Assembly (NCBI GenBank): GCA_041648895.1
Contig: JBAZOB010000001.1
Coordinates: 15,093 to 79,092 of the forward strand
DNA length: 64,000 nucleotides
Direction of reading: 5' to 3'
From: Patescibacteria group bacterium
Lineage (GTDB): Bacteria; Patescibacteriota; JAHJAL01
This document shows positions 34,210 through 60,922 of the stretch, piece by piece. The position numbers were made by a program, and so were the translations under genes. The first letter of the stretch is position 1. Each line of letters begins with the position of its first letter. The notes beneath the pieces are model-generated. The model saw nothing but the letters and a program-made list of their open reading frames with translations, ran no database searches and was not told the DNA's origin.

Positions 34210-34283
34210 TCCGGAGTAGCTCAGCTGGTTAGAGCGACTGACTGTTAATCAGTAGGTCGTGGGTTCGAGTCCCACCTCCGGAG
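34210..34283 (+). tRNA. tRNA-Asn (anticodon GTT); no encoded CCA.
   Basis: Hand fold: acceptor TCCGGAG/CTCCGGA, D-arm GCTC-AGCTGGTTA-GAGC, anticodon stem ACTGA/TCAGT with loop CTGTTAA, T-arm GTGGG-TTCGAGT-CCCAC. Confidence 0.8.
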
Positions 34284-35768
34284 TTTGTAAGAACACTCTT
34301 TAGCCTGCAGAAGAAGGTCGAAGGGTGTTTTTAGTTTGTAGATTATGTTTTCGTCTTTCAGTTGTAAGTTCGAAAATACGAATTTGAGTAATTGCCGTTT
34401 TTTGTCTATTTCCGAACTTTTGGCAAAAATTTGAGGAGCTTTGGAACAGACATTTAGTAGAAAGGTAACTGATTTTACGAATTTTTCATCAGCCTCAGTA
34501 TGATCTTTCATAGACTGAGTAATTTCATATTGTCTATTTTTTAAATCTTTGGCTTTTTTGTCATATTCATCTTGAGTAATACTCCTATTAATACAGAGGT
34601 CCAAGAGTGTATCAAGAGAGGTTTGAATTTTGGTGTATTCGGTTTGAAGTTCGGTAATACTATTTTTATGGTATTCAATTTTGGCTTGGTGAGTTTGGTT
34701 AACTTGATTAATTAGATCGGCGAGGATATCGTCCGGAATAACTAATAAATCGAGTATTTTATTGATTTGTTTTAATAATTGCTTTTCTTCCATTCTTTTG
34801 GCTCCGTGTTTGCCTTTTGATTCGGTACATTTGAGATAGATATATTTATTTTTCTTTTTGTCTGATGAGATAGCACATCCACAATCAGCACATTCAATCA
34901 TTCCTCGACCTAAAACTGAAGCATGGATAGTGGACCATTTGAAGGGTTTTTTGTGATAACCTTGGATAACATCCTGACAGCGATCAAATAATTCTTTAGT
35001 AATTAGATTACCGTGATTGTGCGGTGCTATATTTTCTTTAACTTTCATCATTCCGTAATAAAACGGATTGGTAATGACATGGTTTAACCGACTGTGGGAT
35101 AAATAATTATAGGGAGGTTTGTTGTTGGTAAGACCTTTCTTTTTCATTAAATTTGCTAATCCGCGGATGGAATAACTGCCGGTAGCATATAGGTTGAATA
35201 TTTCTTGGACCAAATACGCTCTTTGTTTGTCTATAATAATAATTTTTCTTTTTGTGATTGGGTCTTCTTCATTTAGATAACCAATTGGTGCTTTAGTTAG
35301 CCATTCGCCACGTTTGATTTTTCCTTCGAATGCGCGTTTGACGTTGTCGCTTATTGCATCGGAATAGTATTTGGCTAGTCCAAGATTCATGGCGAAATGA
35401 AATTTTTCAACGGCGGATATATTGGAATTAATAACAAGGTTATCTGAAACAAAGTGCATTTCAATTTTATCCAACATTGTCATCTCGTACAGGTTGGATA
35501 TTCTTTTATCAAAAACATTTCGGGAAAATCTATCAACTTTATCAAAACAAATTACTAATTTTTCTTTTGATTTTTTGATGTAATCAATCATTTTGTCAAA
35601 ATCATCTCTTTTGTTTCGATATGCTCCTTCGTCAAAACTGTATTGTTTAACGATGGGGAGGTCTTTTTTTTGACAATATTTAATCATCCGATCAGTTTGA
35701 GCTGGTAGGGAATTACCAGCGTCTTTTTGCTCTTCGGTTGATACTCTGGCTAATATTATGGCTTTCAT
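34245..35768 (-). CDS. Large serine recombinase (resolvase catalytic domain, recombinase domain, zinc ribbon); integrase of the downstream island. The 3' end overlaps tRNA-Asn.
   Basis: N-terminal MKAIILARVSTEEQ...SLPAQ (catalytic Ser). FDKVDRFSRNV. Zn ribbon CADCGCAIS...C. The last roughly 13 codons run through the tRNA-Asn 3' half on the opposite strand. Confidence 0.75.
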   Translation of the reverse strand: MKAIILARVSTEEQKDAGNSLPAQTDRMIKYCQKKDLPIVKQYSFDEGAYRNKRDDFDKMIDYIKKSKEKLVICFDKVDRFSRNVFDKRISNLYEMTMLDKIEMHFVSDNLVINSNISAVEKFHFAMNLGLAKYYSDAISDNVKRAFEGKIKRGEWLTKAPIGYLNEEDPITKRKIIIIDKQRAYLVQEIFNLYATGSYSIRGLANLMKKKGLTNNKPPYNYLSHSRLNHVITNPFYYGMMKVKENIAPHNHGNLITKELFDRCQDVIQGYHKKPFKWSTIHASVLGRGMIECADCGCAISSDKKKNKYIYLKCTESKGKHGAKRMEEKQLLKQINKILDLLVIPDDILADLINQVNQTHQAKIEYHKNSITELQTEYTKIQTSLDTLLDLCINRSITQDEYDKKAKDLKNRQYEITQSMKDHTEADEKFVKSVTFLLNVCSKAPQIFAKSSEIDKKRQLLKFVFSNLQLKDENIIYKLKTPFDLLLQAKECSYKLRRWDSNPRPTD

Positions 35769-48241: not shown

Positions 48242-48464
48242 TATCTTGGTCCATCTCGATTAATAAATTGACATAGTTAAATAGATTTTCAAATGCATCT
48301 TCCGCCTCAGTTTCGTTGAGGTTGGGGAAATACTTATCGGCAAGTTGTCGGCGGTTTTCGGAGAGCATAAAAAAATCGACTTACTTAATTGCAAGTCGAT
48401 GATAATAAAGAAAAATTCTGAAACAGGCTATTTCTACTACTTCATAACAAATCTACTAAATCTA

Positions 48465-49196
48465 CTATTTTAAATCTTTAGTTGAGATAATGTTAATTTT
48501 GCTTTTATTGAGCTGTTCTTGGGTTATTGGATTAATAAATTGGATGCCTTCCGATGAGATATTGAAAAAGAGGTCTAGCAGTTTGCCTTTAAAGCCTAAG
48601 TCGTTAATTATTCCGTTAATAGTTCTGTTTTTATCCAGTTTAGTTTCTTTGATAACCTCTGAAGTTATTAATTCTTCGTTTTGATGCTGGAAGAGGTATT
48701 CAATGAGTCGATGCCCGTTTTTGTTGAAATCGGGTGTGCTTAATAAAATATTGTTTAAAGTTAGTTGGCGCGTATTATCGTTAAAGTCTATTTTATAAAT
48801 GACATTATCTAAATTTATGGGGTTTTGAGTAGGTTTTTGTTTAGTAAATTTCTTTTTTAGTTTGTTATGAAGGATATCAAAATTTGATAATAACATCAGT
48901 TCATAACCATCTGAATCTCTAAAGATAAAATTACGATCATGAGGTCTGCCATTTCCATCAAATGAAGTTATCGTGTTTTCGTGAGAATTGGCTAATGTTA
49001 ATGCGTTAGTAGTGTATCTTGAAACCAGTTTAGCAACTTTGAAATCAATAATAAGTTTGGAAATAATTGGTTGAAACAGTCTTGGCTCTATGGTGGTATT
49101 GTCAGGTTCAATTCTTACAATTTCATTTTTTGGAGTTATTTTTGATAGCTCATGTAATTCTGATACAATTAACCACATTTTTTCTTCGTAGTTCAT
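48465..49196 (-). CDS. Hypothetical protein.
   Basis: 243-aa ORF divergent from the ATPase gene across an extremely AT-rich spacer. Confidence 0.4.
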   Translation of the reverse strand: MNYEEKMWLIVSELHELSKITPKNEIVRIEPDNTTIEPRLFQPIISKLIIDFKVAKLVSRYTTNALTLANSHENTITSFDGNGRPHDRNFIFRDSDGYELMLLSNFDILHNKLKKKFTKQKPTQNPINLDNVIYKIDFNDNTRQLTLNNILLSTPDFNKNGHRLIEYLFQHQNEELITSEVIKETKLDKNRTINGIINDLGFKGKLLDLFFNISSEGIQFINPITQEQLNKSKINIISTKDLK

Positions 49197-49343
49197 AATA
49201 CATTACTTTTTTATATATATAAAATTCACATCGATTATATTTTTTGATATCCATAACAATTATATCTTATAAATCATTCATTATGATATATAAATAATAA
49301 ATATGATATTATATATATAGATTAAATCTATTTATATATTAGT

Positions 49344-50702
49344 ATGTCTAAGGTGAATTGGCAAAATTTTGGTTTGAAGAGTAATCCTTATCTAACCGAT
49401 CCTTTAGTGGAGGGTGGGCAATTAAACATAGATAAGGCATTTGTTGGTAGGCAAGTTGAAATACGTACTATCAATGATCAGATTGAGAGTTTAAATAATT
49501 TGTGCATGATTATAAGTGGTGATGTAGGTGTAGGAAAAACTAGTTTAGTTAATTATGTAAAATATTTTTGGAAGCATAAAGGTAGAGATAAATATTTGTT
49601 TTCATCACGGAGAGAAATTGAGGCAAACGAGAATATTTTAGATAAAAGCTCTTTTTTACTCGAAGTTATAGGTTCGATTATTGGAGAAATTGAATTGTTG
49701 GATCCTGATTTAATGAAGGATCCATTACTTGATAAAGTTAAACAATTAATAGATGTTACGCAGTCTATTTCATATAGTGGTGAGTTTTCTTTAGCTGGTT
49801 TTGGAGGTGGGGGTGGAAAAGAAACTCAGATTTCTCAACCAATTAAATTACCTTATTCGATATTGGAGAGTTATTATAAAAAATTACTAGATTTTGTTTG
49901 TCAACATAAGATTAATTCAGTTGTTAATAGTGGATTGATTATTCATGTAAACAATTTTGATGTTGTGATGATGGAGAAGACTTCAAAGAAGAAAGTAATA
50001 AGGTTTTTTAATGAAATAAGGGATATTTTACAACAAGATAAAGTGTATTATTTCTTTTTAGGACCAAGAAATTTTTATAAGGATATTATATCTACTCAGA
50101 AAAGGGTAAAAGGAGTATTTTTTCAATCCCCATTACAAATTAAACCATTGAGCAAGAACGATGTTGTGTCGGCATTAAATGAGAGAATGTTTTTGTTAAA
50201 ATCTGAGGGAGTAGAAAAATTTATTAAACCGATTGATGATAAGGTAGTTTATCAGCTTTATGATTTGTATGACGGTGATATTAGGATGGTTCTTTGTTCT
50301 TTGTATAATATTCTTACTCAAGTTAATGTTGCTTCTTCGAAAACTATTGGCGCAGATCGTTCGAAGGCATATCTTTGTGAGTGGTGTTGGGAGAATGTTG
50401 AGAAGTGTCTTAAAATTACTGACAAACAGAAAGATATTTTGAAATATATTTCGAGTGTAGACAAAGACATAACTCAAAACGATATAGCTAAGGAATTTAA
50501 AATTGTTCAAACGAATGTGTCTGGTTATTATATGAAACCGTTGAGGGAAAATAATATTATTGAAGAAAAGAAGAAGGAAGGTAAATTAACTTATTGGGGT
50601 TTGACTCGGGAATATTTGCCTCTAAAATGGATGAATGAAGTTAAAGAAAACATGGTAGATGAAAAAAAGATTGTCGAGACGCAACTAAAATTATTTGGCT
50701 AA
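49344..50702 (+). CDS. AAA+/P-loop ATPase with a C-terminal winged-helix DNA-binding domain (Orc1/Cdc6- or archaeal-ATPase-like).
   Basis: Walker A ISGDVGVGKTSLVNYV. Walker B-like IIHVNNFDVV. C-terminal DILKYISSVDKDITQNDIAKEFKIVQTNVSGYYMKPLRENNII is wHTH-like. Confidence 0.55.
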   Translation: MSKVNWQNFGLKSNPYLTDPLVEGGQLNIDKAFVGRQVEIRTINDQIESLNNLCMIISGDVGVGKTSLVNYVKYFWKHKGRDKYLFSSRREIEANENILDKSSFLLEVIGSIIGEIELLDPDLMKDPLLDKVKQLIDVTQSISYSGEFSLAGFGGGGGKETQISQPIKLPYSILESYYKKLLDFVCQHKINSVVNSGLIIHVNNFDVVMMEKTSKKKVIRFFNEIRDILQQDKVYYFFLGPRNFYKDIISTQKRVKGVFFQSPLQIKPLSKNDVVSALNERMFLLKSEGVEKFIKPIDDKVVYQLYDLYDGDIRMVLCSLYNILTQVNVASSKTIGADRSKAYLCEWCWENVEKCLKITDKQKDILKYISSVDKDITQNDIAKEFKIVQTNVSGYYMKPLRENNIIEEKKKEGKLTYWGLTREYLPLKWMNEVKENMVDEKKIVETQLKLFG

Positions 50703-50868
50703 GTGAATATCATTTGACGTAAAGGTGTTTGTGATAGTCGATATATTAATATAATATCTGAATAGTATTTAGTTCGAAACATGTCAATAAGGGGGAGTTT
50801 CGTTTTGAAAGCACGCTGATGAGGCGTGTTTTTGGTATAATTAAACAAATAAAATTAATATTCTGGTA
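50703..50868. repeat. Conserved intergenic module, copy 0, upstream of the radical SAM gene: hairpin TTTGAAAGCACGCTGATGAGGCGTGTTTTTGGTATAATTAAAC.
   Basis: The CACGC-N7-GCGTG hairpin, T-run and TATAAT recur before most genes between 50.7 and 57.9 kb. Confidence 0.6.
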
Positions 50869-51885
50869 ATGGGTATAGAAAATTCGAAAGAAAAATATTT
50901 TGGTTTGGAGAATGTGCCTGTTGGCAAGGGTGCTGTGTTAAGAGGTTGGAATTTGCCCGAAGACTATTTTCGTAATCCGGATAATTTGCCGGTTGTAGAT
51001 TTCAGGGCGATGACGCATGAGTGTCGTCATAATTGTTTTCATTGTTTTACTGACAAGAATAAAAAAACTCTGCCTTTATCAAAGATTAAAAGTGTAATTG
51101 ATGAGTTGGCTAACTATAACACGTTTGCCATAAATTATCTTGGGGAGGGTGAGCCGACTTTAGATAAGGATTTTTTTGAAATTGTGGAATATACCAAGGG
51201 AAAAAACATTCAGCCGATTGTATTTACGGATGGAGCGACCAAATTAACTAACAGGAAATTTGTCCGAAGATTGAAAGAGTCGGGGGCTTCAGTGTGTCCA
51301 AAATGTGACAGTCTTTGGAATGCTGAGTATCAAAATATGGTGGTGAGTGATAAGAATGGAAAATATTTTAAGGCGAGGAATAAAGCGGTACAGATATTAA
51401 TTGAGGAGGGATTCAATCAGCCTAGTGATGATGGTACTACTAGACTAGGTTTTGATATGGTAGTTACTAAAGCTAATATGCATGAGGTGTCTAAAACGTT
51501 AAGGTATTGTAGAGAAAATAACATTTGGATAGTTTTTGCTTTTTATTTGCCTTCTGGCAGAAGTGGTACGGAGTATTTTGATAAAGAGTTGGTTTTGACG
51601 TTTGATGAGAAGAAGTATTTGTGTAGTCAGATTAAGCGAATAGATGAGAAAGAATATGGTTTTTATCATCAAGTGATTAATAATTTTGCCACAATACCTT
51701 GTGTTGAATTGATGCAGATATATGGTGATGGGCGGGTGAGTCCTTGTCCTGGCAATGAGAATGTAGTCGGAAATGTGGAAAAGGATTCTATCAAGGATTT
51801 GAAAAAGAAGATAATTGATAAATATCCGGTTCATGAGCAAAAGAGTTTTGATGGATATTGCCCTTATCGAGAAAGATTGGAATAA
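50869..51885 (+). CDS. Radical SAM enzyme with a C-terminal Cys-rich (twitch/SPASM-like) region.
   Basis: CX3CX2C motif ECRHNCFHC near the N-terminus. GEPTL glycine-rich SAM motif. C-terminal PCVELMQIYGDGRVSPCPG...CPYRE cysteines. Confidence 0.7.
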   Translation: MGIENSKEKYFGLENVPVGKGAVLRGWNLPEDYFRNPDNLPVVDFRAMTHECRHNCFHCFTDKNKKTLPLSKIKSVIDELANYNTFAINYLGEGEPTLDKDFFEIVEYTKGKNIQPIVFTDGATKLTNRKFVRRLKESGASVCPKCDSLWNAEYQNMVVSDKNGKYFKARNKAVQILIEEGFNQPSDDGTTRLGFDMVVTKANMHEVSKTLRYCRENNIWIVFAFYLPSGRSGTEYFDKELVLTFDEKKYLCSQIKRIDEKEYGFYHQVINNFATIPCVELMQIYGDGRVSPCPGNENVVGNVEKDSIKDLKKKIIDKYPVHEQKSFDGYCPYRERLE

Positions 51886-52115
51886 CTAGTGAGCAAGGGT
51901 GTGGGGTCCTTCGGCAGGCTCAGGATAAATAACTAAGCTGTAACCATAAAACAGGTTCGAACATCGTGTATTGCACGGAGTTTTGGTAAAATTACGAACT
52001 AGTGATAATTTTTGAAAGCACGCTTATTGGGCGTGTTTTGGTTTGTTTGCTATATGTTTTTGGAAAATAATGAAATATAATATTAGTAGGCTGGTGTATT
52101 CTTATTCATTTAATA
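51886..52115. repeat. Conserved intergenic module, copy 1: AGTGAG..GGTGTGGGGT box, GGTTCGAACATCGTGTATTGCACGGAGTTTT box, then the GAAAGCACGCT..GGCGTGTTTT hairpin.
   Basis: Aligns block-by-block with 52914-53074, 53702-53934 and 55715-55896. Confidence 0.7.
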
Positions 52116-52913
52116 ATGTCACTTATGATTATTGATGCTCATACTCATATTTACGATGACAAAAAATATCGGGACTATCAGGCTAAAGCAAAAGACAGAA
52201 TTTTAAAAATGATAGTGTTAGGTTGGTACAAAGATAAGTTGGTTGATTATCTAAAATTTGCTGATACAGAGGTTAATCTGTTTTTTACTGGAAGTGTGGA
52301 TATGGATAGAAATGTTGCAAAGCAATTGAAGTTAATTGAGAAAACACTTAAGGAAAATAAGATTTATGGCGTAAAGCTGTATCCTGGCTATCAGTATTTT
52401 TTTCCGTCTGATGAAAAAGTTTATCCGATAGCTGAGCTTTGTCAAAAGTATGACAAACCGTTGATATTTCACAGTGGTGATGTTTGGAATCCCGAAGGTG
52501 ATGCTATTTTGAAATATTCTCATCCGATATATATCGACGAGTTGGCGGTTAAGTTTCCAAAATGCAAGATGATTATTTCTCACTTTGGTTTTCCTTATAT
52601 CTTGGAGACGGTTAATGTGGTGAGTAAAAATAAAAATGTTTTTACCGAGATATCTGGCACTATTGAAAAGGATAAAAACAGTTCTGATAAAGAGACAGAG
52701 GAATTGGCTGAGCAATATATCAAAGATTTGAAGCGGGTGTTTGCTTATTTTCCTGGAGTAAAGAAAAAGACAATGTTTGGTACGGACTATGGTGGCGAGA
52801 ATACTCCGCTTAATCAAATTGAGCCTTATATGAAGGTTGTGGAGTCAGTGTTTACGGATGAGGAGCAGAAGAGTGTTTTTGGGGGTCTGGCTGAAAGATT
52901 GTTTTTTGAATGA
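52116..52913 (+). CDS. Amidohydrolase-family (TIM-barrel metal-dependent hydrolase, Amidohydro_2-like) protein.
   Basis: N-terminal IIDAHTHIYDD metal-binding His pair. Later HSGD and ISHFGFPY motifs. Confidence 0.6.
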   Translation: MSLMIIDAHTHIYDDKKYRDYQAKAKDRILKMIVLGWYKDKLVDYLKFADTEVNLFFTGSVDMDRNVAKQLKLIEKTLKENKIYGVKLYPGYQYFFPSDEKVYPIAELCQKYDKPLIFHSGDVWNPEGDAILKYSHPIYIDELAVKFPKCKMIISHFGFPYILETVNVVSKNKNVFTEISGTIEKDKNSSDKETEELAEQYIKDLKRVFAYFPGVKKKTMFGTDYGGENTPLNQIEPYMKVVESVFTDEEQKSVFGGLAERLFFE

Positions 52914-53074
52914 TATAGTGAGTGAAGGTGTGGGGTAACTAAGCCGTAACTAACAAAGTGGTTCTAACTTCGTGTATTCACGCGGAGTTTTTGACACGAA
53001 GCTCGAACCTTATTTGGTCCGGGTTTTTTAGTATAATAAATTGGTAAGAGTTGTTTATTGTTAATGCAAAATAG
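52914..53074. repeat. Conserved intergenic module, copy 2: AGTGAGTGAAGGTGTGGGGT ... GGTTCTAACTTCGTGTATTCACGCGGAGTTTTTGACACGAAGCTCGAACC ... TTTTTTAGTATAATAAATTGG.
   Basis: Contains the inverted repeat ACTTCGTGT/GACACGAAG flanking ATTCACGCGGAGTTTTT. Confidence 0.7.
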
Positions 53075-53701
53075 ATGTTAGTTTTTATAGATGAATCAGG
53101 TGATTCTGGCTTCAAGTTGCAAAAAGGTTCAACTACCAGTTTTGTGGTGGCTTTGGTGATATTTAATGAAAATTTAGATGCAGAAGAGACGGCAGTTGAA
53201 ATTAAAAAGTTTAGAAAAAAGATTGGCAAAACTGACCGGTTTGAATTTAAGTTTAATAAATGTAATAAAGAATTGAGAGTCGGTTTTCTAAAAGCAGTTA
53301 AGAAGTGTAATCTTCGGATAAGGGTAATTGTGTTTGATAAGGAAAAAATATATAGCATTCATTTAAAAAGGAAAACGGAGACTTTTTATAAGTTTGCCAT
53401 ACGTCAGGTTTTGCAGCACAATGGCAAGACTATCAAGAATGCCAAGATAAAATTGGATGGTTTGGGTGAGCGTAAGTTTAGGAAAGCTTTGACAACTTAT
53501 TTACGGAAATATTTGAATACTGATTATGAGAGGATTATGGATAATTTGCGTTTTGTTGATTCCAAGAGCAATGTATTGATTCAATTGGTGGATATGGTGG
53601 CTGGAGCTATAAGGATTAGTTATGATGCCAATCGTAAAGATGCTGGTGAATATAAAAAAATCATCAAGAATAGAATTGATGATTTGTGGGAGTTTGAATA
53701 A
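53075..53701 (+). CDS. DUF3800-family protein.
   Basis: N-terminal MLVFIDESGDSGFK is the diagnostic DUF3800 FIDESG motif. 208 aa. Confidence 0.6.
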   Translation: MLVFIDESGDSGFKLQKGSTTSFVVALVIFNENLDAEETAVEIKKFRKKIGKTDRFEFKFNKCNKELRVGFLKAVKKCNLRIRVIVFDKEKIYSIHLKRKTETFYKFAIRQVLQHNGKTIKNAKIKLDGLGERKFRKALTTYLRKYLNTDYERIMDNLRFVDSKSNVLIQLVDMVAGAIRISYDANRKDAGEYKKIIKNRIDDLWEFE

Positions 53702-53934
53702 AGTTTGATCTCGTTTCTATCCTAAGGATTCTTAGGAACGCTGCCATACGGCAACAGTTCGAAAACGAGATCTTTGTATTTAAAATTTATCATATTTGGG
53801 ATGATTTTTCAATAAAGCGGTTCGAACATCGTGTATTCACGCGGAGTTTTTGACACGAAGCTTGAATCTGTTTTGGTTTAGGTTTTTTTATATTTGATAT
53901 AGTTAGATTTGTAATAGGAGATAAGGAAATTGGA
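53702..53934. repeat. Conserved intergenic module, copy 3. It begins with a 66-nt multi-hairpin element, then GGTTCGAACATCGTGTATTCACGCGGAGTTTTTGACACGAAGCTTGAATC.
   Basis: GATCTCGTTT...AAACGAGATC is a 10-bp closing stem around the CCTAAG/CTTAGG and TGCC/GGCA hairpins. The downstream box is near-identical to copies 1 and 2. Confidence 0.7.
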
Positions 53935-54156
53935 ATGAAGTTTATTAAGGAAAATTTGCTGGTTTTGTCAATTTTGCTGATTGTAATTGGTTTTTTGGTA
54001 GGTAGCATGGTTCTTGTTTGTCCAATAATCGGACCATGTTTCTATGTTCATGACTATTATAAAATTTTGGTATATGTTTTATTTGCTGTAGGGTTTTTGT
54101 CGCTAATCTTTTCTTTTATTTTGCGGTTGATATATATATTTCAAAGAAAAAAATAA
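53935..54156 (+). CDS. Small membrane protein of 73 aa with two TM helices.
   Basis: LLVLSILLIVIGFLVGSMVLV and ILVYVLFAVGFLSLIFSFIL. It sits between two copies of the conserved intergenic module. Confidence 0.4.
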   Translation: MKFIKENLLVLSILLIVIGFLVGSMVLVCPIIGPCFYVHDYYKILVYVLFAVGFLSLIFSFILRLIYIFQRKK

Positions 54157-54290
54157 AAAGGTTTGAGCTTTGTGTCTGGCGCGGAGTTTAGTTTTTGAAG
54201 ATAACACGCTTGATGAGCGTTTTTTTATGGATTGGGATGGTTTTAGTATAATTAATTGGTCGATAATAATAATTTTGTATGGAAGAAATT
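54157..54290. repeat. Conserved intergenic module, copy 4, degenerate: CGCGGAGTTT ... TTGAAGATAACACGCTTGATGAGCGTTTTTTT ... GGTTTTAGTATAATTAATTGG.
   Basis: Shares the CGCGGAG box, the hairpin-plus-T-run and the TAGTATAATTAATTGG -10-like box with the other copies. Confidence 0.6.
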
Positions 54291-54437
54291 GAAAACAAAA
54301 ATAGTTTAGAGATAGTTAAGCCACTATTGAGTAAATTGTCTGAGGATTATCAGAAAGTTTTGGATGACAATTTTGTGGGTTTCTATGTCTTTGGATTTGG
54401 TTGGAAGATGTTTGTGCCATGAATGAATCTGTAGTGG

Positions 54438-54707
54438 TTAATCTAAATTTTCATATTTATTGATATATGTGATGGTAGTGTGGTAATACTCCTCAAAATG
54501 TTCTTGTTTAACTTGGTCCAATGACTTCAGGTCAATATTTTTAATCTCTTCATCTAGTTTTCTTTCTTCTTTGTTTAGAGACTCTCTTTGCTCATTATTA
54601 TACTTTCGCTCTTGTTGGTACATGATGAGTCTGTGATAAAATTCGCGGGCTTTTTGGATTTTATCTTCTATATCTGAATTATTTTCTGATGGGTTTTTTG
54701 AAAGCAT
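54438..54707 (-). CDS. Small charged/coiled-coil hypothetical protein.
   Basis: 89 aa; the only minus-strand gene inside the cassette-like array. Confidence 0.35.
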   Translation of the reverse strand: MLSKNPSENNSDIEDKIQKAREFYHRLIMYQQERKYNNEQRESLNKEERKLDEEIKNIDLKSLDQVKQEHFEEYYHTTITYINKYENLD

Positions 54708-54877
54708 ATAATGGTGATAATTATTATTAATATTATGTTATCGTATCTTTTAATGATTTACTAGTTTGTGGGTGGAATAACTATTATCTAATTAGTAAAC
54801 AGGCTTAAACTAAATTGGATTGCAATACCCCAAGGGGCCGCTTATTGCTATAATATAAAAAAACATTTATTGAATTT

Positions 54878-55714
54878 ATGAAAATTATTGAGAAATTACC
54901 AGGTTTTTCGTCAAAAGTTTTTCTGGTTGATTTGGATGGTGAGAAATGTGTTTTAAAACAAATGAACGGTCCAGATGAAGTGCAAACTGAGAAAAAATTT
55001 ATGGAGATGATGGCAAATAATGGTTTGCCATATTTGAAGGTGTTTAGTGAGGCTGGTTTAAAACCAAATGAAATATTACTGGAATATGTTGGGGGTTCAG
55101 TTATTCTTGGTAATAGATTTGATGAACGGAATGCATACAAATGGGGAGAATTAGCTAAAAAAATTCACAGTATAAAATATGATCAGTGTTTTAAGTATGA
55201 TCAGTATCGAAATAAGAATAATTTGAGTTGGGGCCAGTTTTTACATGATAAGCATGAGCGTTCGTTGGCTAAAGCTGAAGAATATGACAACTATGGATTT
55301 GGCCAAGGGCGAGTGAATGAGATTAGTGATTTTGTGAACTCTTTGTTTAATCTGATTTTAAAAGAGTATTCGTTAATCCATGGCGATTTCCACACTTCTA
55401 ATGTACTAATTAGGGGTAGCGATTTGGTGTTATTTGATGGCGATCCCACTATTTTTTCCGGTGATCCGCTATATGATTTGGCAATTGCTTGGATGGAAAT
55501 GCCGAACGGGTCTTTGATATCTATTGATGATCCGGAATATGCTAATGATAAAAATTGTTTAGATGCTTTTATTGATGGTTATGGTAAAGACTTTACAAAT
55601 AATGTGAATTTGAAAAAATATATTGTTTTAATCGCATTTAGCCGTTTGTACACACCGTTTGCCAGAAATTATAAGAATATTATTGAGAATATATTGAATC
55701 GAACTGGGAACTAG
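54878..55714 (+). CDS. Aminoglycoside phosphotransferase / choline-kinase-like small-molecule kinase (APH fold).
   Basis: Catalytic-loop motif LIHGDFHTSNVLI plus a downstream D-rich segment LFDGDPTIFSGDPLYD. Confidence 0.6.
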   Translation: MKIIEKLPGFSSKVFLVDLDGEKCVLKQMNGPDEVQTEKKFMEMMANNGLPYLKVFSEAGLKPNEILLEYVGGSVILGNRFDERNAYKWGELAKKIHSIKYDQCFKYDQYRNKNNLSWGQFLHDKHERSLAKAEEYDNYGFGQGRVNEISDFVNSLFNLILKEYSLIHGDFHTSNVLIRGSDLVLFDGDPTIFSGDPLYDLAIAWMEMPNGSLISIDDPEYANDKNCLDAFIDGYGKDFTNNVNLKKYIVLIAFSRLYTPFARNYKNIIENILNRTGN

Positions 55715-55896
55715 AGAGTGAGGGTGTGGGGTTAGATGATCAAACGGCTTTTACTAATCAATAGTTCATAAGTTGTCTTTGCTGGAGTATTTTTTGAAAG
55801 CACGCTCTCTGTGGCGTGTTTTGATTTATGGGCGTATTTATGTTATGGTGACTGGCATGTCAATGTTATTGCATTAGAGAAAGTTAAGGATAAACT
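55715..55896. repeat. Conserved intergenic module, copy 5: AGAGTGAGGGTGTGGGGT ... TTTTTTGAAAGCACGCTCTCTGTGGCGTGTTTTG.
   Basis: Same stop-proximal GTGAG-GGTGTGGGGT box and CACGC/GCGTG hairpin. Confidence 0.65.
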
Positions 55897-57759
55897 ATGA
55901 AAAAATTGGGAATGCCGGATAAATTAGAATTTTGTGATCAAAATAATAATTCTCCCGCTGACAATTATTATGAAGAAAAGGTTGCTTCGGAGGCAGCTTT
56001 GAAAAATGAGTTTGTGGGGAGTGAAAACTATTGTGCCGAAAAAATTGAGGGGAAAAGTGACCTTGGGCTGGAAGAAGCAGATAATATCCGGCAGATTGAG
56101 CGGATTGGAGAAGAGATAAAAGAGTACAGAGAGAAAAAAGATTCCGAAATTCAAAATGAGTCAAGTATTGGTATTGATTATGAAAAGTTTGATAGATTTT
56201 ATGATAATTATGTTTCGGGTCTTCCGCGGCCGAAAGGTGTGTGGCAGAGAATGAAACAATGGTGGAATAGTCCGGATAAAGGCTGGCGCCGGAGTATTAT
56301 TGATTTGAATGATGCGATATTTCGTTTTCCTTTGGCGCGGTATAGCCGTTTTGCTGGTGTGATTGAGGAAAGTACGGATGAAGATTCGAGTTCCGAAGAA
56401 TTGGCCGCGTCACTGGCGGCTATTGACCGGTTTTGGAAAGAATATGGCTATGGTGGCGCTGACGATTATGGAACAATACGTTTATTAAGAGAACACCGGA
56501 GGTTGACGGAAACTTTAATAAAAAGAAGCAGCCTGGAGGATAAAGAAGGTGGACGGGATAAACAATTGGCGAAAGTGAGCGCTGGATTTGTCCGGGAAGA
56601 TGGCAGAGAAATATTAAAAATTGGATTTGTCGAAACCGATTCCAAACAGTGCCAGAATAAGTCTGCACAAGATATGGAGGCGCTGGTTGAGCAGATAATG
56701 GATAAATATCGATACTGGCGCGGGATTAAAAAGCGAAAGGTGAATCACGACAGATTTGATACCGCCGGGTCCAAAATGTCAGAATTTGAAAAAACTCTAC
56801 TGGCCATTAACTGTGTTTTGGGGCTGGGGGCGTTGTTGGTGACTTCTTGGTCGAATGATAAAAAAATGGAAACGAATGTCTCGTCCTGGCCTAAATCAAA
56901 GAGCGCGATCAATGTCAGGGTGGATAAAGCCGGAAGTGAGTCAGTCGGTGTTGAAAGTAGGCAGGATTTTTATTGGAAGAGGATAGTAAAGTTGGCCAGG
57001 GAAAAGGGAATTGATGTTAATCAATATGTTAAAGCAGCAATGACGGATAAATTCTCCTGGGAAATGATGGATTCGGAAAACGAAAATCTGCTGTTAAATA
57101 ATACCGATTTGATCCCGGGAAATTATGAGACGTTTGACCAATTCAAGCTGGTTTGTGTTTTTCGTTCTTTACACCGGCAGTATTTCGATACACACAAAAA
57201 GTATTTAAAGTTGATGACAAAACATCCCAATTCGATTTGGGGTGTGGAGACGATTGGTGAGTTTTTGTGGCGTTTGCGTATTTTGAGGACTGATCGTCAG
57301 ATGATGGAAAATGAAGTTGCTGTTCGTGGCCAAGATCTATCAAAACCATCTTTGGTAAACAATGACCGAGTTAATTATATTAATAATAATTCGGCCGGGG
57401 TAAATATTACCAAAATTGATCATTCCGGCACTCCTTTACCCGGCCGAGAGTTGACGACGGAAATGATATGTAAATTGGCGTTTGAAAATTTGGGATTGGT
57501 GGACGAGTTGGGCTATGACAATACCAAACCTCCCGAAGTTCCTCCACCCATACCCGGGGTACCGTTACCATTGACCGGTTCTTGGTCCGGGGCCAAAGAG
57601 GAAAATAAGAATTTTAAGCCGGAAATCCCGCAATTGCCCGGATTGGCATCGGAAAAATCCATACCAAAACCTCCTTCTTCAATTGATCCTTCGCAGCTGG
57701 GAAGTAATTTGCCCGGAGTGAATGAAACTTCATCCGGTAATAAAGAGGGTGAAAAATAA
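55897..57759 (+). CDS. Large hypothetical protein with a Pro-rich C-terminal tail.
   Basis: 620 aa. C-terminal PPEVPPPIPGVPLPLTG...PKPPSSIDPS. No catalytic motif recognised. Confidence 0.4.
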   Translation: MKKLGMPDKLEFCDQNNNSPADNYYEEKVASEAALKNEFVGSENYCAEKIEGKSDLGLEEADNIRQIERIGEEIKEYREKKDSEIQNESSIGIDYEKFDRFYDNYVSGLPRPKGVWQRMKQWWNSPDKGWRRSIIDLNDAIFRFPLARYSRFAGVIEESTDEDSSSEELAASLAAIDRFWKEYGYGGADDYGTIRLLREHRRLTETLIKRSSLEDKEGGRDKQLAKVSAGFVREDGREILKIGFVETDSKQCQNKSAQDMEALVEQIMDKYRYWRGIKKRKVNHDRFDTAGSKMSEFEKTLLAINCVLGLGALLVTSWSNDKKMETNVSSWPKSKSAINVRVDKAGSESVGVESRQDFYWKRIVKLAREKGIDVNQYVKAAMTDKFSWEMMDSENENLLLNNTDLIPGNYETFDQFKLVCVFRSLHRQYFDTHKKYLKLMTKHPNSIWGVETIGEFLWRLRILRTDRQMMENEVAVRGQDLSKPSLVNNDRVNYINNNSAGVNITKIDHSGTPLPGRELTTEMICKLAFENLGLVDELGYDNTKPPEVPPPIPGVPLPLTGSWSGAKEENKNFKPEIPQLPGLASEKSIPKPPSSIDPSQLGSNLPGVNETSSGNKEGEK

Positions 57760-57862
57760 AACTGATTCGTTGATTATGAAACAGGAGGACTACTAAGTAG
57801 TGGTTCTTTAGTGGCGTGTTTTTTATGTGTGTTACAATGAAGAAAATTGTAATAAAGTTTTT
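57760..57862. repeat. Conserved intergenic module, copy 6, partial: GGTTCTTTAGTGGCGTGTTTTTTATG.
   Basis: Retains the GGCGTGTTTT half of the hairpin and a GGTTC box. It marks the right edge of the array. Confidence 0.45.
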
Positions 57863-58375
57863 ATGAAAATATATCTAGCCGGTAGTGTGCCCAAGGGTGA
57901 TAAAGATGCTAAATCTTTTGATGATTGGCGGGTTAGATATCGACAGGCGGTGAGTGAATATATTGATGCGGAATATATTGACCCATATGAAAGGGATCTG
58001 CCGGAAGATGATTTTTTGTGTATTTTTGGTAAAGACTGTTTACAGGTGGAAAGTGCTGATTTACTACTGGTTTGTGCCGAAAATAAACCGGGAGTGGGAA
58101 CTTCTCAAGAGTTAGTGATTGCCAAAATGTTTAAGAAACCGGTGATTACTGTATTGCCGAAAGATTCACCCAGTCGGAGATCAAATGTTGTTTTTCGGGG
58201 GAAGATGATCAAAGATTGGATTCATCCGTTTATTTTTGCCTTTTCGGATGTGATTATTGAAGATATTGCCGAGATTGGAAGAGTCCTGCCGGAGTTGAAA
58301 GAGATGGTTCCAAAAGATATTTCGATAGTGGAGGAGGCAATGGAACATTGCCGATCGATTGAGGGAAATGGGTGA
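57863..58375 (+). CDS. Nucleoside 2-deoxyribosyltransferase-like protein.
   Basis: N-terminal MKIYLAGS, then later acidic residues. The start is trimmed to the internal ATG. Assignment is tentative. Confidence 0.4.
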   Translation: MKIYLAGSVPKGDKDAKSFDDWRVRYRQAVSEYIDAEYIDPYERDLPEDDFLCIFGKDCLQVESADLLLVCAENKPGVGTSQELVIAKMFKKPVITVLPKDSPSRRSNVVFRGKMIKDWIHPFIFAFSDVIIEDIAEIGRVLPELKEMVPKDISIVEEAMEHCRSIEGNG

Positions 58376-58430
58376 GTTTGTTGTTATAATTAATCTAGTG
58401 AGTATTATTTTTTTAATTGATGGAGGTTTT

Positions 58431-58829
58431 ATGAAAAATCCGATTATCCATTTTGAAATTCCCGTCGATGATGTGGAGCGGGCGAGGAAATTTTATGGTG
58501 AATCGTTCGGCTGGGGGTTTAGTCGGTTTGAGATGCCGGAAGACGAGTATTGGCTGGTGCAAACGACGGAAATGGATGAGAAAATGAAGCCAACATCGCC
58601 GGGGATCAATGGTGGAATGATGAAACGTAAAGACCCCTCTCAGCCGTTTATGAATTATATCACAGTTGAGTCGATCGATGAGATGATAAAAGTGATCGAA
58701 AAGAATGGTGGCTTGATGGTGATGCCCAAGATGGAAATTGGTCAAGGCATGGGTTATATGGCCGCTTTTAAGGATACGGAAGGTAATCTAATGGGATTGC
58801 ATCAGGAAGAGAAGAAGATGACGGAATAG
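58431..58829 (+). CDS. VOC/glyoxalase-bleomycin-resistance family protein.
   Basis: MKNPIIHFEIPVDDVERARKFYGESFGW; C-terminal GYMAAFKDTEGNLMGL. GGAGG RBS 8 nt upstream. Paralog at 61240. Confidence 0.65.
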   Translation: MKNPIIHFEIPVDDVERARKFYGESFGWGFSRFEMPEDEYWLVQTTEMDEKMKPTSPGINGGMMKRKDPSQPFMNYITVESIDEMIKVIEKNGGLMVMPKMEIGQGMGYMAAFKDTEGNLMGLHQEEKKMTE

Positions 58830-59027
58830 GCTACTTAAAAAGACTTAGCGTTTAATGGCTGAGGTTTTTTGATTTTTGCGTCGAAATCTTTCTGGACATT
58901 GATTTTAGTAGTTTATTTTTCCAGCCAGGTTTGGCTTGGGTAGCTATAATAATAGGTATTTTTTTTGTTTAGATTATAGTTTGTTATAGTGAAAACGGGG
59001 ATAATTTTTTTGAGGAATGTTCATATC

Positions 59028-60725
59028 ATGAAAAATATATGGGTGTGGGTGGTAGTATTGGGATTAAATTTTTTTAATCTGCCGGCAGTGTTGGCGGATA
59101 GTGAGGGATATACTATAGAAAATATAACTTCTAGAGCGATTTCACCTTCAACGGCTATGGGAAATGCGGAAATGCAGGTTTCCGGTCATAAAGTCTATTA
59201 TCTTTGGCATCAGTTTGATGGAACATATTGGCAAATGTGGATGGCTGTTTCAGATCTTGATGGAAGTAATTTTGCCGCTGCTTTGTTGACAACGGGCAAT
59301 GTTAATACTTTATATGGACAATTCGAAGTAGAAGGAGAAAAAATATATTATGTTTATGGTCGATTAATTGGGCGGTGGGAAATTCATACAGCAACTTCTG
59401 ATTTGGATGGTAGTAATTTTGTGCCGGTTCAGCAAACTTTCAATGATGGCTTTCGAAATTATTATGGCTATCAATTAGATGTGCATGAAAATAATATATA
59501 TTATACTTTTGTTTGTGATTATCCCAGCTATCCCATTTATACTGCGGTGGCTGATAGGAATGGGGGAAACTGGTCAGCAACTATCAAGGTAGCGTCTAGT
59601 GGTCAATGGGATCGTGGACCGCAATTGATTGTGTCTGAATCAAAAATATATTATGTCTGGCAGGTGAGTGATGGATCTTCTGATCAAATATGGACATCTG
59701 TTTCCGACTTGAATGGTTCTAATTTTGTGACGACTAAGAGAACAACTACAGCCGGACATAAATATGGTAATCAATTCGTGATTGATGGGACGAAATTATA
59801 TTATGCATGGGTGGAGAGTGATGGGGCGAATTATCAGATTTGGACTGCATCAATGAATACTGATGATAGTGGTTGGATGCCGACAAAATTGACTAATATA
59901 CCATATGACAGTGTCGGTCCGAGAATAATGGTTAACAGATCAAAATTATATTACCTTTATACCACCAGTGATGGTACAAATTTTCAGGTTTGGTTGGGCA
60001 ATGCCAATTTTGATGGGACGGGGTTTTTAACTGAACAAAAGACTTTTTCGGCATTTTCGAAAAGATATGTGTCTTTATGGGTTGATGAGACCAACATACA
60101 TTATTTGTGGGATGAGTTGCACACTCCGAATCGTCAAATTATGTGGGCTAATGGACATTATCAAATTATCCAAGATGAATCTACCACTGTTACTGCCAGT
60201 GTTCCCTCGACTTTAACTTTTACAGTCGCTGGTGTATCCAGTGGCAATGCCTGTGCCAACTCGGGTGGTAGCGCCAGTGTGACAACCACTGCTTCAACCA
60301 TTCCCTTTGGAACATACACTGGCGCCCAAACCAAGATTGCTTGCCAGACTCTGACAATTTCGACTAACGCGACAAGTGGTTATGCCGTGACGGTGCAGCA
60401 AAATCAGGATTTGACTTCGGCTAATGCTGATGTCATGGATAAATTTTCTGGGACTTATGGGTCACCAACGATCTGGTCAATGCCGCCGGGAAGTGGCACG
60501 GAATCGTATTTTGGTTTTACGACCGATGATAATGATTATGTAGATTTTCAAGTTAATAAATATGGTTCTTTTGGGACTAATGATACGCCATACAATATGG
60601 TAGTAGAAACTGATCCGGCGGTGGATGAAGTGAATGTGGTGAGTTATCAACTGGAGGTGACGGATCTGCAGGAGAGTGGTGTTTATACTAATAATATTAT
60701 GTATATTGCCACGGCTATATATTAA
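59028..60725 (+). CDS. Secreted repeat protein, likely a beta-propeller with degenerate Asp-box (BNR-like) repeats, plus a C-terminal Thr/Ser-rich domain.
   Basis: Signal peptide MKNIWVWVVVLGLNFFNLPAVLA. Six repeats contain KIYYVW/KLYYAW followed by S-D-L-D-G-S-N-F type motifs. Start trimmed to the internal ATG. Confidence 0.5.
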   Translation: MKNIWVWVVVLGLNFFNLPAVLADSEGYTIENITSRAISPSTAMGNAEMQVSGHKVYYLWHQFDGTYWQMWMAVSDLDGSNFAAALLTTGNVNTLYGQFEVEGEKIYYVYGRLIGRWEIHTATSDLDGSNFVPVQQTFNDGFRNYYGYQLDVHENNIYYTFVCDYPSYPIYTAVADRNGGNWSATIKVASSGQWDRGPQLIVSESKIYYVWQVSDGSSDQIWTSVSDLNGSNFVTTKRTTTAGHKYGNQFVIDGTKLYYAWVESDGANYQIWTASMNTDDSGWMPTKLTNIPYDSVGPRIMVNRSKLYYLYTTSDGTNFQVWLGNANFDGTGFLTEQKTFSAFSKRYVSLWVDETNIHYLWDELHTPNRQIMWANGHYQIIQDESTTVTASVPSTLTFTVAGVSSGNACANSGGSASVTTTASTIPFGTYTGAQTKIACQTLTISTNATSGYAVTVQQNQDLTSANADVMDKFSGTYGSPTIWSMPPGSGTESYFGFTTDDNDYVDFQVNKYGSFGTNDTPYNMVVETDPAVDEVNVVSYQLEVTDLQESGVYTNNIMYIATAIY

Positions 60726-60922
60726 AAGTTGGTGTGCCGATATATCGTATGTTTCAATAAATATGGGATAAATATGGTAGTTTTACGGAAATATTCCGGG
60801 CGGTTAATTCGTCCGGAATTTTAATTGATTTGTAATATTATTTTAATTCAATTGAAATTTCAGCTGATCGGGAATCCGGTACAATAAAGGTAAGAAGAAG
60901 ATTTATTTATTAATTTATCAAT

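Follow-up and report, generated by a model that had tools for sequence, protein, structure and literature searches.

The 64-kb stretch of DNA analysed here (the window) belongs to an uncultured bacterium of small size (Patescibacteria/CPR) and contains an array of unrelated accessory genes parted by one composite type of spacer (Table 1). The spacer modules lie in a low-GC region downstream of the tRNA-Asn and the serine recombinase gene, the 3' end of which overlaps the tRNA. According to the composition profile, G+C drops from ~0.44 to ~0.35 immediately 3' of the tRNA-Asn, suggesting that this position is likely the left boundary of an integrated island, and climbs back to ~0.42 at the gene for the 620-aa protein, which is therefore probably the right limit of the array. 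The array likely sits at the far end of a genomic island starting at the tRNA-Asn and the recombinase gene. No tRNA-Asn att repeat was found between the array genes. Other families of long intergenic hairpin repeats are present in the same genome.

The radical SAM gene matches the pVip model only weakly. Several CPR groups, and one record that bears the label Woesearchaeota, have homologues of the Amidohydro_2 gene with 50-68% identity; in the one context looked at (relative L059) the gene sits in a different operon. The DUF3800 gene matches the PADLOC candidate defence family PDC-M04A. The Rfam motif DUF3800-IX (62 bits) takes up the first 70 nt of junction J3, which the preliminary description had counted as part of the module; its position and strand are identical in six other loci, and it accompanies the DUF3800 gene as a fixed element, outside the repeated module. 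The layout of the two ORFs before the kinase gene points to a possible rearrangement scar (54279..54707).

Table 1. Features of the array and its surroundings (positions in the window)
Feature	Position	Strand	Basis, components and remarks
tRNA-Asn(GTT)	34210..34283	+	ARAGORN, Rfam
Large serine recombinase (Resolvase + Recombinase + Zn ribbon)	34245..35768	-	Pfam
STAND-type ATPase, C-terminal winged HTH; gene before J0	49344..50702	+	Weak Pfam (AAA_16, ATPase_2, nSTAND1, nSTAND3, HTH_24, all under curated cut-offs)
J0 module	50771..50841	+	Junction 50703-50868; decayed P2 50771-50803; T2a = box 3 50808-50833 (-13.9 kcal/mol); extended -10 TGGTATAAT 50833-50841, 27 nt onward to ATG
Radical SAM (SPASM-like), unit 1	50869..51885	+	Pfam, NCBIfam
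J1 module, most complete copy	51888..52081	+	Junction 51886-52115; box 1 51888-51907; 23-nt insertion; linker AACTAAGCTGTAAC 51931-51944; P2 + U-run 51954-51986; degenerate region 3; T2a 52015-52039; TATAAT 52076-52081
Amidohydro_2, unit 2	52116..52913	+	
J2 module	52917..53037	+	Junction 52914-53074; box 1 52917-52936; linker 52937-52950; P2 52960-52991; region 3 52993-53009; terminator T2b 52998-53027; TATAAT 53032-53037
DUF3800, unit 3	53075..53701	+	
DUF3800-IX RNA motif (RF02968)	53703..53772	-	Rfam, 62.2 bits vs gathering score 36.8
J3 module	53811..53903	+	Junction 53702-53934; no box 1; P2 53819-53850; region 3 53852-53868; T2b 53857-53886; extended -10 TGATATAGT 53895-53903
73-aa predicted membrane protein, unit 4	53935..54156	+	ORF list; no Pfam match
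J4 module	54160..54252	+	Junction 54157-54279; 13-bp G.U-rich P2 54160-54192; variant second hairpin 54199-54226; promoter block TATAAT TAATTGG 54247-54259, homologous to J2 counterpart
47-aa ORF	54279-54422	+	ORF list; no Pfam match
89-aa ORF, opposite strand to the 47-aa ORF	54438-54707	-	No Pfam match
J4c, extra degenerate module copy	54757..54854	+	Sequence reading: box-1-like TAGTTTGTGGGTGG; linker-like AATAACTATTATCTAA; decayed 5' arm CAGGCTTAAACTAAATTG; small CCCCAAGGGG hairpin; extended -10 TGCTATAAT 54846-54854
APH-family kinase, unit 5	54878..55714	+	Pfam
J5 module	55717..55849	+	Junction 55715-55896; box 1 without spacer 55717-55732; decayed linker + P2 55763-55791; terminator T2a 55797-55822; possible extended -10 TGTTATGGT 55841-55849
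620-aa protein, function not assigned	55897..57759	+	
J6, outside the family	57760..57862	+	Hairpin of a different kind 57785-57808 (-10.1 kcal/mol)

The similarity between junctions, proposed for all seven, persisted in multiple alignment and in nhmmer searches of each junction against the whole window for six of them (J0-J5, 50.7-55.9 kb); J6 gave no nhmmer match to the others and has in common with them only the motif GGCGTGTTTT / GGCGTGTTTTTT. The stringent homology support is for the J1/J2/J3 core (E 5e-13 for J2 with J3, 1.5e-5 for J1 with J2, 0.011 for J1 with J3). J1 also matched J0 (E 0.026), J4 (E 0.07-0.12) and J5 (E 0.15-0.2), and the membership of J0, J4 and J5 is based on these weaker matches, exact short blocks and the multiple alignment. 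One copy had been overlooked: J4c, upstream of the kinase gene, was found with the module copy of a close relative (L033) as the nhmmer query (E 0.66), and its profile match is by construction, J4c having belonged to the training set. Every copy is carried by the plus strand. Neither nhmmer nor the profile search detected a copy in the remaining 59 kb of the window, and the family was not found elsewhere in public data. Assembly breaks occur at module copies; a second, independently made assembly of this sample agrees with positions 49990-52999 at 100% identity, which rules out misassembly as the source of the repeats.

The copies are mosaics. Over 83 nt, J2 is 84% identical to J3 despite their unrelated flanking genes, with a common exact repeat of 34 nt (52970-53003 in J2), and J3 combines this core with a 5' arm as in J1 (19/19 nt). 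J2 and J4 have the promoter block in common and different second hairpins, while the box-3 stems are identical across J0, J1 and J5 with wholly different loops. Homology may also reach coding sequence at the 3' ends of the radical SAM and amidohydrolase genes (p ~0.003 uncorrected), an extension outside the account of our best explanation.

The module is a composite non-coding unit of ~90-200 nt, complete or truncated depending on the junction. Its 5' block, with stop codons in several frames, comprises box 1, AGTGAG-N0-4-GGTGTGGGGT, and the linker AACTAAGCYGTAAC; an RNA hairpin, P2 (AAC-NNN-GUGU / loop / RCRC-GGA-GUU), with a U-run follows, and then a second hairpin with a U-run, of the 'box 3' or the 'region 3/4' type. 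The boxes, thought to recur at each junction, are patchy: box 1 occurs in J1, J2 and J5 only, the full form of box 2 with its 3' arm is confined to J2 and J3, and box 3 is present in J0, J1 and J5, with a variant form in J4. Nor is box 1 tied to a stop codon, as had been supposed, since it lies ~180 nt past the DUF3800 stop in L033 and comes after a minus-strand ORF in J4c.

P2 has energies of -8.6 to -11.9 kcal/mol in J1-J4, with U4-5 after it, and the second hairpins, each followed by a U-run, have -10.9 to -13.9 kcal/mol in J0-J3 and J5 and -5.6 kcal/mol in the J4 variant; in J0 and J5 P2 is decayed and the box-3 hairpin intact. The terminator consensus scan flags positions 51964, 53829, 54163, 52015 and 54206, and terminator-like sites number 9 vs 4.2 +/- 2.0 in shuffles. 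A TATAAT-like box is found in each junction 23-47 nt before the ATG, with an upstream TGn in five of eight; the promoter scan in this AT-rich DNA was not above shuffles (30 vs 26.6 +/- 4.5). These consensus features suggest putative terminators and promoters.

In a close relative (L033/L034) the DUF3800 protein is 91% identical, and window positions 53003-53813 align at 84% nt identity; the homology stops a few nt from the left edge of the J3 module. What follows downstream in L033 is a different version of the module, one that contains box 1 and carries an insertion of 45 nt at the apex of P2, and then an unrelated gene of the APH family. Gene content differs between these relatives, and the breakpoint is at a module edge. 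Ahead of box 1, L033 may retain the remnant of an upstream gene end, which would imply imprecise joints, but this similarity failed the shuffle test. The strain comparison covers one related strain on short contigs, so the case for recombination at modules consists of a single breakpoint and the mosaicism, which are suggestive of it. More distant DUF3800 and amidohydrolase loci carry no module, which makes the module a feature of the array, not of these genes.

What we observe is homology, mosaicism, hairpins with U-runs, -10 boxes and a single breakpoint between strains that falls on a module edge. On balance, this is probably best explained by portable terminator-promoter linkers resembling the promoter-early stem-loops (PeSLs) of phages, which would insulate the single-gene units from one another and provide joints for recombination; terminator activity, promoter activity and recombination as the cause are what we infer. 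The possibility of a portable terminator-plus-promoter unit had already been raised in the preliminary description, and it fits both the anatomy and the breakpoint in the relative. The module would end transcription of the upstream gene via tandem intrinsic terminators and restart it for the downstream gene, so that each accessory gene would form a self-sufficient transcription unit, insulated from its neighbours. The spacers share both homology and orientation, and general homologous recombination could therefore use them to delete, insert or swap whole single-gene units with neighbours unbroken, by unequal crossover, gene conversion, or circle excision and re-entry, and such exchange would make the array a modular, fast-evolving accessory region. 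The conservation of box 1 and the linker is unexplained by the terminator/promoter model, and the exact conservation of stem sequences, beyond pairing, could point to a sequence-specific partner.

We consider it unlikely that the module acts as a regulatory RNA, either in cis (an attenuator or riboswitch-like leader) or as a small RNA co-regulating an accessory regulon. P2 would then sequester region 1, which without P2 would pair with region 3 as the long box-2 hairpin and block the region 3/4 terminator. J2, J3 and L034 contain mutually exclusive helices: as long as region 4 is left off, the MFE structure is the long hairpin (-16.3 and -13.3 kcal/mol), and P2 with the terminator wins once it is included (-28.0 and -21.2). 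As in functional RNAs, the P2 base is kept and the apex varies, ranging between a loop of 3-4 nt and inserted hairpins of 15 nt and 45 nt; pairing relies on G.U pairs, in which the plus-strand hairpins are rich, and one element ahead of unrelated genes resembles a riboswitch regulon. However, 0/10 pairs have a compensatory double change (wobble changes only), RNAalifold gives box 1 and the linker no consensus structure (-0.78 kcal/mol), the module had no Rfam match with E values as high as 10 admitted, the -10 boxes are downstream of the terminators, and region 3 occurs in 3/9 copies, many copies being truncated or decayed. That decay is graded (J0, J5 and J4c are degenerate) and, with the restriction of the family to one short region and its absence from other public data, would also fit passive relics: long ago a gene and its flanks would have been duplicated locally in tandem, with gene replacement and decay afterwards, and the modules would now do no more than ordinary terminators and promoters. 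This history we regard as quite unlikely, since the exact stems beside fully diverged loops in J0, J1 and J5 speak for selection or for conversion that is still going on, J2 and J3 remain so similar between unrelated genes, and the module flanks different genes in the relative.

Repeated insertion of a small non-autonomous mobile element (MITE, REP or PATE-like) into intergenic DNA, incidentally with hairpins and a promoter, appears improbable: there are several partly identical copies in one orientation at which the assembly breaks, and the genome holds its other hairpin repeat families, but terminal inverted repeats and target-site duplications are absent, no transposase is encoded in the window, the copies occupy consecutive junctions within 5 kb, and they are different mosaics, not one inserted unit. 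Lowest in our estimate, and very improbable, are recombination sites, folded or double-stranded, served by a recombinase of their own, which could be the large serine recombinase or be encoded elsewhere. As in integron attC/VCR arrays, the single-gene units are co-oriented and each adjoins an imperfect palindrome whose variable apex recalls the attC variable terminal structure; gene content varies between relatives, the serine recombinase lies within the same low-GC region, and termination alone does not explain why the stems are conserved exactly. The integron-like array or serial site-specific insertion favoured in the preliminary description nevertheless found no support. The sole recombinase detected in the window is the large serine recombinase, 15 kb upstream of the modules, and no tyrosine recombinase (IntI) is among the ~50 scanned ORFs, including all long ORFs of the window. 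Direct sequence reading gave no RYYYAAC...GTTRRRY cores, and the long hairpin has neither R''/R' core sequences nor bulged bases. Bottom-strand folding, put forward as a test for attC-like structure, is weak or nil as ssDNA (0 to -3.9 kcal/mol in J4 and J3, no better than shuffles), and a fold of that strand with extrahelical bases is absent. Instead of relying on a single Pc, every unit comes with a -10-like box and terminator-like hairpins of its own, and the mosaic copies are cut at differing points with no fixed crossover site; the possibly imprecise joints of L033 are a further point against site-specific recombination, with the failed shuffle test for that similarity kept in mind.

Among known systems, REP/BIME, Correia and MITE-like repeats are hairpin-bearing intergenic DNA that may affect transcription, some with terminators or promoters; they are dispersed genome-wide and have terminal inverted repeats or a dedicated transposase (RAYT), whereas the present family is local, mosaic and without inverted ends. 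Promoters are reused upstream of unrelated genes in prokaryotes (Matus-Garcia et al. 2012, PMC3488235; PMC3575422), and these putative mobile promoters likewise place strongly similar upstream regions before unrelated genes of a single genome; here the shared unit includes the terminator-like hairpins of the preceding gene, and the copies are clustered, not dispersed. Several DUF3800-associated RNA motifs, of unknown function, are followed by terminators (Weinberg et al. 2017, PMC5737381). J3 contains one genuine member, but the repeated module matches none of them and flanks non-DUF3800 genes too.

The closest logic is that of the PeSLs, 'mobile regulatory cassettes' of T4-type phages (Arbiol et al. 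2010, PMC2839356; Comeau et al. 2014, PMC4122927), a precedent that we counted in favour of portable terminator-promoter linkers. The likeness is one of anatomy, and similarity in sequence would not be expected. The present array is part of a CPR bacterial chromosome or island instead of a phage, and the module is longer (90-200 nt), with two tandem hairpins and the extra conserved 5' block. Both are short composite intergenic elements that join a terminator stem-loop to a sigma-70-type promoter, each putative in the present module; they lie repeatedly between the unrelated genes, small and non-essential, of a hyperplastic region, and have copies homologous enough for recombination, with differences between close relatives mapping there and, as we infer for the present array, transcriptional insulation of each gene.

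The unrelated single genes between 50.7 and 55.9 kb are separated by a repeated intergenic module, best supported on present evidence as a portable terminator-plus-promoter unit; the observation in the preliminary description is real in part, with corrections. The gene order is STAND ATPase with HTH, radical SAM protein, amidohydrolase, DUF3800, 73-aa membrane protein, two small ORFs, APH-family kinase and 620-aa protein, and the junctions are named J0 to J6. We compared each junction with the whole window by nhmmer and detected J2-J3 (E 5e-13), J1-J2 (1.5e-5) and J1-J3 (0.011) similarity, and because of these values the stringent support is confined to J1, J2 and J3. J1 was linked more weakly to J0 (E 0.026), J4 (~0.1) and J5 (~0.2), and J0, J4 and J5 are tied in by these weak hits together with exact short blocks and alignments. 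All the matches are on the plus strand within 50.7-55.9 kb, and two profile HMMs (box 1 with linker; hairpin P2 with terminator) run against the window at E up to 10 found no further copies. The homology claimed for all seven junctions therefore stands for J0-J5, weakly for J0, J4 and J5, but not for J6, which has no similarity to the module except GGCGTGTTTT and carries a hairpin of another kind. An eighth, degenerate copy, overlooked before, is located upstream of the kinase gene (~54757-54854). J2 and J3 share a direct repeat of 34 exact nt, and 83 nt at 84% identity, at a spacing of 859 bp. Independent Logan contigs from the source sample match the window at 100% identity and break within this 34-nt repeat, so the repeats are genuine.

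The module is built from blocks in varying combinations, a mosaic rather than one constant unit (see the table). In J1-J4 the P2 hairpin folds at -8.6 to -11.9 kcal/mol; for the second hairpins the range is -10.9 to -13.9 kcal/mol, apart from the J4 variant (-5.6). In a consensus scan, P2 was called terminator-like in three junctions (J1, J3, J4) and the second hairpin in two (J1, J4), and a promoter scan gave no enrichment over shuffles in this AT-rich DNA. J3 combines the 5' arm of J1 with the core of J2; J2 and J4 have the promoter block in common, but not the terminator; the box-3 stems are identical in J0, J1 and J5, and their loops are unrelated. The long inverted repeat formerly described as box 2 is the P2 5' strand paired with region 3 (5' arm, by direct reading, GGTTCGAAC or GGTTCTAAC; 3' arm GCTCGAACC or GCTTGAATC) and is present in J2 and J3 only. 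The closeness of box 1 to stop codons in the window is not obligatory, as box 1 of a related contig, L033, lies ~180 nt past a stop.

Features of the window and of related contigs (window positions unless a contig is named)
Feature	Position	Strand	Sequence or form	Occurrence and remarks
tRNA-Asn	34210-34283
Large serine recombinase	34245-35768	minus		directly adjoins tRNA-Asn; 3' end overlaps the tRNA
Junctions J0-J6	50703-50868; 51886-52115; 52914-53074; 53702-53934; 54157-54279; 55715-55896; 57760-57862
Box 1			AGTGAG-N0-4-GGTGTGGGGT	J1, J2, J5; degenerate in the extra copy (~54757-54854)
Linker			AACTAAGCYGTAAC	J1, J2
Hairpin P2 and U-run			AAC-NNN-GUGU / loop / RCRC-GGA-GUU	well formed in J1-J4; decayed in J0, J5
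Second hairpin and U-run, box 3 kind			AAAGCACGC-N7-8-GCGUGUUUU	J0, J1, J5; variant in J4
Second hairpin and U-run, region 3/region 4 kind				J2, J3
-10-like box	23-47 nt before next ATG			upstream TGn in five of eight
DUF3800-IX (Rfam RF02968)	53703-53772	minus		62.2 bits; gathering threshold 36.8
DUF3800-IX	L033 706-775
DUF3800-IX	L035 10634-10704
DUF3800-IX	L060 1008-1079
DUF3800-IX	L061 2365-2435
DUF3800-IX	L064 1483-1553
DUF3800-IX	L065 8632-8701
Long palindromes	419-564; 9151-9244; 10619-10648; 15084-15177; 29294-29443		TGTCATCCCCGCCTTGAGCGGGGATCTCAT ... ATGAGATCCCCGCTCAAGGCGGGGATGACA	-58 to -70 kcal/mol (long copies); -29 (short 10619 copy)
Second hairpin family	2437-2508; 3222-3293; 17821-17862		GATCAAG/CTTGATC-type units	-39 and -32 kcal/mol (two long copies)
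Short runs near gene ends	554-584; 22999-23029; 23586-23619; 25098-25131; 26452-26485; 32670-32703		ATTCGTAAT / ATTTGTAAT-like	chromosomal part
Radical SAM gene, last ~20 codons	51826-51885		CGGTTCATGAGCAAAAGAGTTTT / CGGATGAGGAGCAGAAGAGTGTT	tail peptide ..HEQKSF..RERLE*
Amidohydrolase gene, last ~20 codons	52854-52913		CGGTTCATGAGCAAAAGAGTTTT / CGGATGAGGAGCAGAAGAGTGTT	tail peptide ..EEQKSVF..AERLFFE*

The first 70 nt of J3 belong to DUF3800-IX, a known element separate from the repeated module and one of the DUF3800-associated RNA motifs (Weinberg et al. 2017, PMC5737381). In all seven loci compared (the window and six others) it lies 0-7 nt past the stop of the DUF3800 gene and, by the Rfam model, on the opposite strand. 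DUF3800-IX travels with the DUF3800 gene, since its position and relative strand are the same in the six other loci. It may be truly antisense and convergent, or a 3' UTR element with the strand assigned in reverse.

The array was previously read as integron-like. This interpretation is not supported: each defining feature of an integron cassette array that we tested came out absent. Pfam scans of ~50 ORFs, including all the long ones in the 64-kb window, returned no Phage_integrase match, and the only recombinase detected in the window is the large serine recombinase. By direct reading, the attC cores RYYYAAC (R'') and GTTRRRY (R') are absent; the 3' end of box 2, taken in gene orientation, lacks GTTRRRY. 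The proposed attC-like fold of the bottom strand is not conserved: the single-stranded DNA folds have -11.2 (J2), -6.4 (J1), -3.9 (J3) and 0.0 kcal/mol (J4), those of J3 and J4 being no better than shuffles, and the long hairpin has mismatches but neither bulges nor extrahelical bases. The module copies are truncated at varying points, hence there is no fixed crossover site. Integrons have an adjacent IntI gene with attI, attC cores and mostly promoterless cassettes behind a common Pc. None of these was found in the window, and the units of the array appear to carry signals of their own, as every junction contains hairpins resembling terminators and a -10-like box.

In a six-copy alignment, 91% of the P2 cells are paired, compared with 24-57% when the register is slid; several of its pairs are G.U, so that the hairpin exists on the plus-strand RNA and much less on the complementary strand. 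In J2, J3 and L034 (a second related contig) the P2 5' strand has two alternative partners, its own 3' strand and region 3; region 3 also serves as the first (5') half of terminator two, and such switching could make the module a regulatory RNA. The long hairpin is the MFE structure until region 4 is transcribed. We weigh against this reading that covariation is lacking among the few and similar copies (zero compensatory double-sided changes in P2, wobble-only variation in four pairs), that the -10 boxes are downstream of the hairpins, and that region 3 is missing from most copies. RNAalifold produced no consensus structure for box 1 with the linker, and an Rfam search of the module at E up to 10 gave no match. 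A MITE- or REP-like mobile repeat is unlikely because the two module ends, as read in the sequence, do not form an inverted-repeat pair, target-site duplications are absent, and the copies are not dispersed (zero outside 50.7-55.9 kb, zero on the minus strand). Passive relics of duplication keep some plausibility as an explanation of the repeated junctions, but they leave the exact stem conservation unexplained. It is improbable, in our estimate, that the module is the cis-site of a dedicated non-integron system for gene-cassette exchange or regulation in CPR, with a partner recognising the exactly conserved stems and box 1; such a putative protein or RNA could capture, excise or co-regulate single accessory or defence genes, and the adjacent STAND-HTH protein, the island serine recombinase or an enzyme encoded elsewhere could be candidates.

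The window is part of a Patescibacteria (CPR) metagenome-assembled genome (NCBI locus tags WC570_00245-00280), with chromosomal genes at 1-34 kb (type IV secretion, pilin, DnaG, sigma-70, CTP synthase, two tRNAs). Beyond the serine recombinase are the genes for SNF2 helicase (1084 aa), DUF4391, N6/N4 DNA methylase and a ResIII and RE_endonuc protein (1005 aa), which resemble a restriction/defence-like cluster, followed by three ORFs without family match and the STAND ATPase with HTH, up to 50702. The G+C content drops from ~0.44 to 0.31-0.39 from the tRNA-Asn region and recovers near 56 kb; this low-GC segment next to tRNA-Asn is probably an integrated genomic island, with the genes just listed at 34210-50702 and the array at its distal end. 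Box 2 and the tRNA-Asn 3' end have GGTTCGA and CGGAGTTT in common. The idea of tRNA-derived att repeats at box 2 was rejected because the tRNA-Asn end has no direct repeat in the window.

Beyond the array (57863-63335) there are small accessory-type genes (a weak nucleoside deoxyribosyltransferase-like, two glyoxalase/bleomycin-resistance, DUF1428, two cupins) with ordinary, non-homologous junctions. The GC skew, (G-C)/(G+C), is strongly positive (+0.10 to +0.46) in all 2-kb bins of 1-64000 independently of gene orientation; the genes of the first 15 kb are mostly on the minus strand. This suggests a strand-compositional (replication) bias and not a coding-strand effect. Very stable long palindromes of an unrelated family, intergenic in the chromosomal part, look REP- or MITE-like, which means that several families of intergenic repeats are present in the genome. 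A second hairpin family is located between the type IV secretion genes, and short runs recur near gene ends.

Two further observations concern the array genes. Within their last ~20 codons, the radical SAM gene and the amidohydrolase gene have CGGTTCATGAGCAAAAGAGTTTT / CGGATGAGGAGCAGAAGAGTGTT in common at equal distances from the stop, and GAAAGATTG at similar, not identical distances; this pair alone stood out, weakly (shuffle p ~0.003, uncorrected for 36 comparisons). The amidohydrolase family has this tail natively, so the similarity may come from junction homology that reaches into the 3' end of the radical SAM gene, or it may be due to chance. The L033 region before box 1 showed no significant similarity to the radical SAM 3' end in the shuffle comparison. 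The 54279-54707 segment, with a 47-aa ORF directly past J4 and then an opposite-strand 89-aa ORF (neither with a family match), looks like a deletion or rearrangement scar in the array.

We detected one close DUF3800 homologue (91% protein identity) on two short Logan contigs of another sample, L033 and L034. L033 3-816 is 84% identical in nucleotides to window 53003-53813, covering the promoter, the DUF3800 gene, DUF3800-IX and ~40 nt more, and in this one relative with short contigs the homology ends at 53813, within a few nt of the left edge of the J3 module. Past the breakpoint the window has the P2 module and the 73-aa gene; L033 has box 1 (AGTGAGTAAAGGTGTAGGGT), the linker, P2 with a 45-nt hairpin inserted at its apex and, further on, a terminator of another kind, a TATAAT box and a gene of the APH family that is not related to the window's kinase. 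Upstream of DUF3800, L034 carries a module of the J2 type whose P2 apex bears an inserted hairpin of 15 nt. The modules are thus common to both strains, and the intervening genes differ. The distant DUF3800 loci (L035-38, L060-65) and an amidohydrolase locus (L059) have no module. In 90%-identity clusters of 15 billion sequences the array proteins are singletons except DUF3800 (alternative start calls aside), and the amidohydrolase alone has 227 homologues. A genome-contig scan for TCGTGTATT-N4-6-CGGAGTTTT gave 32 single matches in unrelated taxa, consistent with chance; two metagenome scans gave zero and 18 matches (chance, by inspection and nhmmer), and three viral scans gave zero or one chance match within a high-GC coding region. 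The module family is rare, since these public scans, in DNA collections without the source genome, gave only chance matches.

The hairpins with U-runs, the -10-like boxes and the L033 breakpoint at the module edge argue for the portable terminator-plus-promoter unit, which the preliminary description had offered as an alternative. Judging by the sequence features, two tandem terminators in the module probably end transcription of the preceding gene, and transcription then probably starts anew for the following gene, which would make every accessory gene an insulated unit. All the spacers point the same way and are homologous, with identity in parts, so whole units could be lost, duplicated or swapped by ordinary homologous recombination from one spacer to another; the exact J2/J3 repeat would allow the formation of circular excision products. 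The mosaic copies, the identical box-3 stems with unrelated loops and the inter-strain breakpoint fit repeated exchange.

CPR/Patescibacteria have tiny genomes; little seems to be known about their accessory gene gain and loss, and experimental studies of this lineage seem to be few. The proposed exchange, if true, would be a simple route to fast turnover of accessory genes, including candidate defence genes, and the region presents several candidate terminators and promoters within a short natural stretch.

The logic of insulated units that recombine at their spacers was demonstrated for the promoter-early stem-loop cassettes (PeSLs) of T4-type phages (PMC2839356, PMC4122927), and promoter reuse in prokaryotes is a related phenomenon (PMC3488235). 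In a PeSL-like arrangement, homologous spacers join promoter-gene-terminator units and double as recombination joints; if the array, described from one genome and one partial relative, is of this kind, gene shuffling by such 'regulatory cassettes' would extend beyond the T4-type phages. As in PeSLs, a terminator-like stem-loop and a sigma-70-type promoter-like box are found just upstream of the next ORF, and the genes between the homologous copies are unrelated, non-essential and grouped in a variable, low-GC region. Indel or replacement breakpoints within the elements, another PeSL trait, are represented here by one case (L033 at 53813; a single relative with short contigs). PeSLs reside in T4-type phage genomes, whereas this array is in a Patescibacteria genome with DnaG, sigma-70, CTP synthase and tRNA genes, and its module is longer, with two hairpins and an extra 5' block. 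Because of this bacterial host and this architecture, the module is an analogue of the PeSLs and not a member of them.
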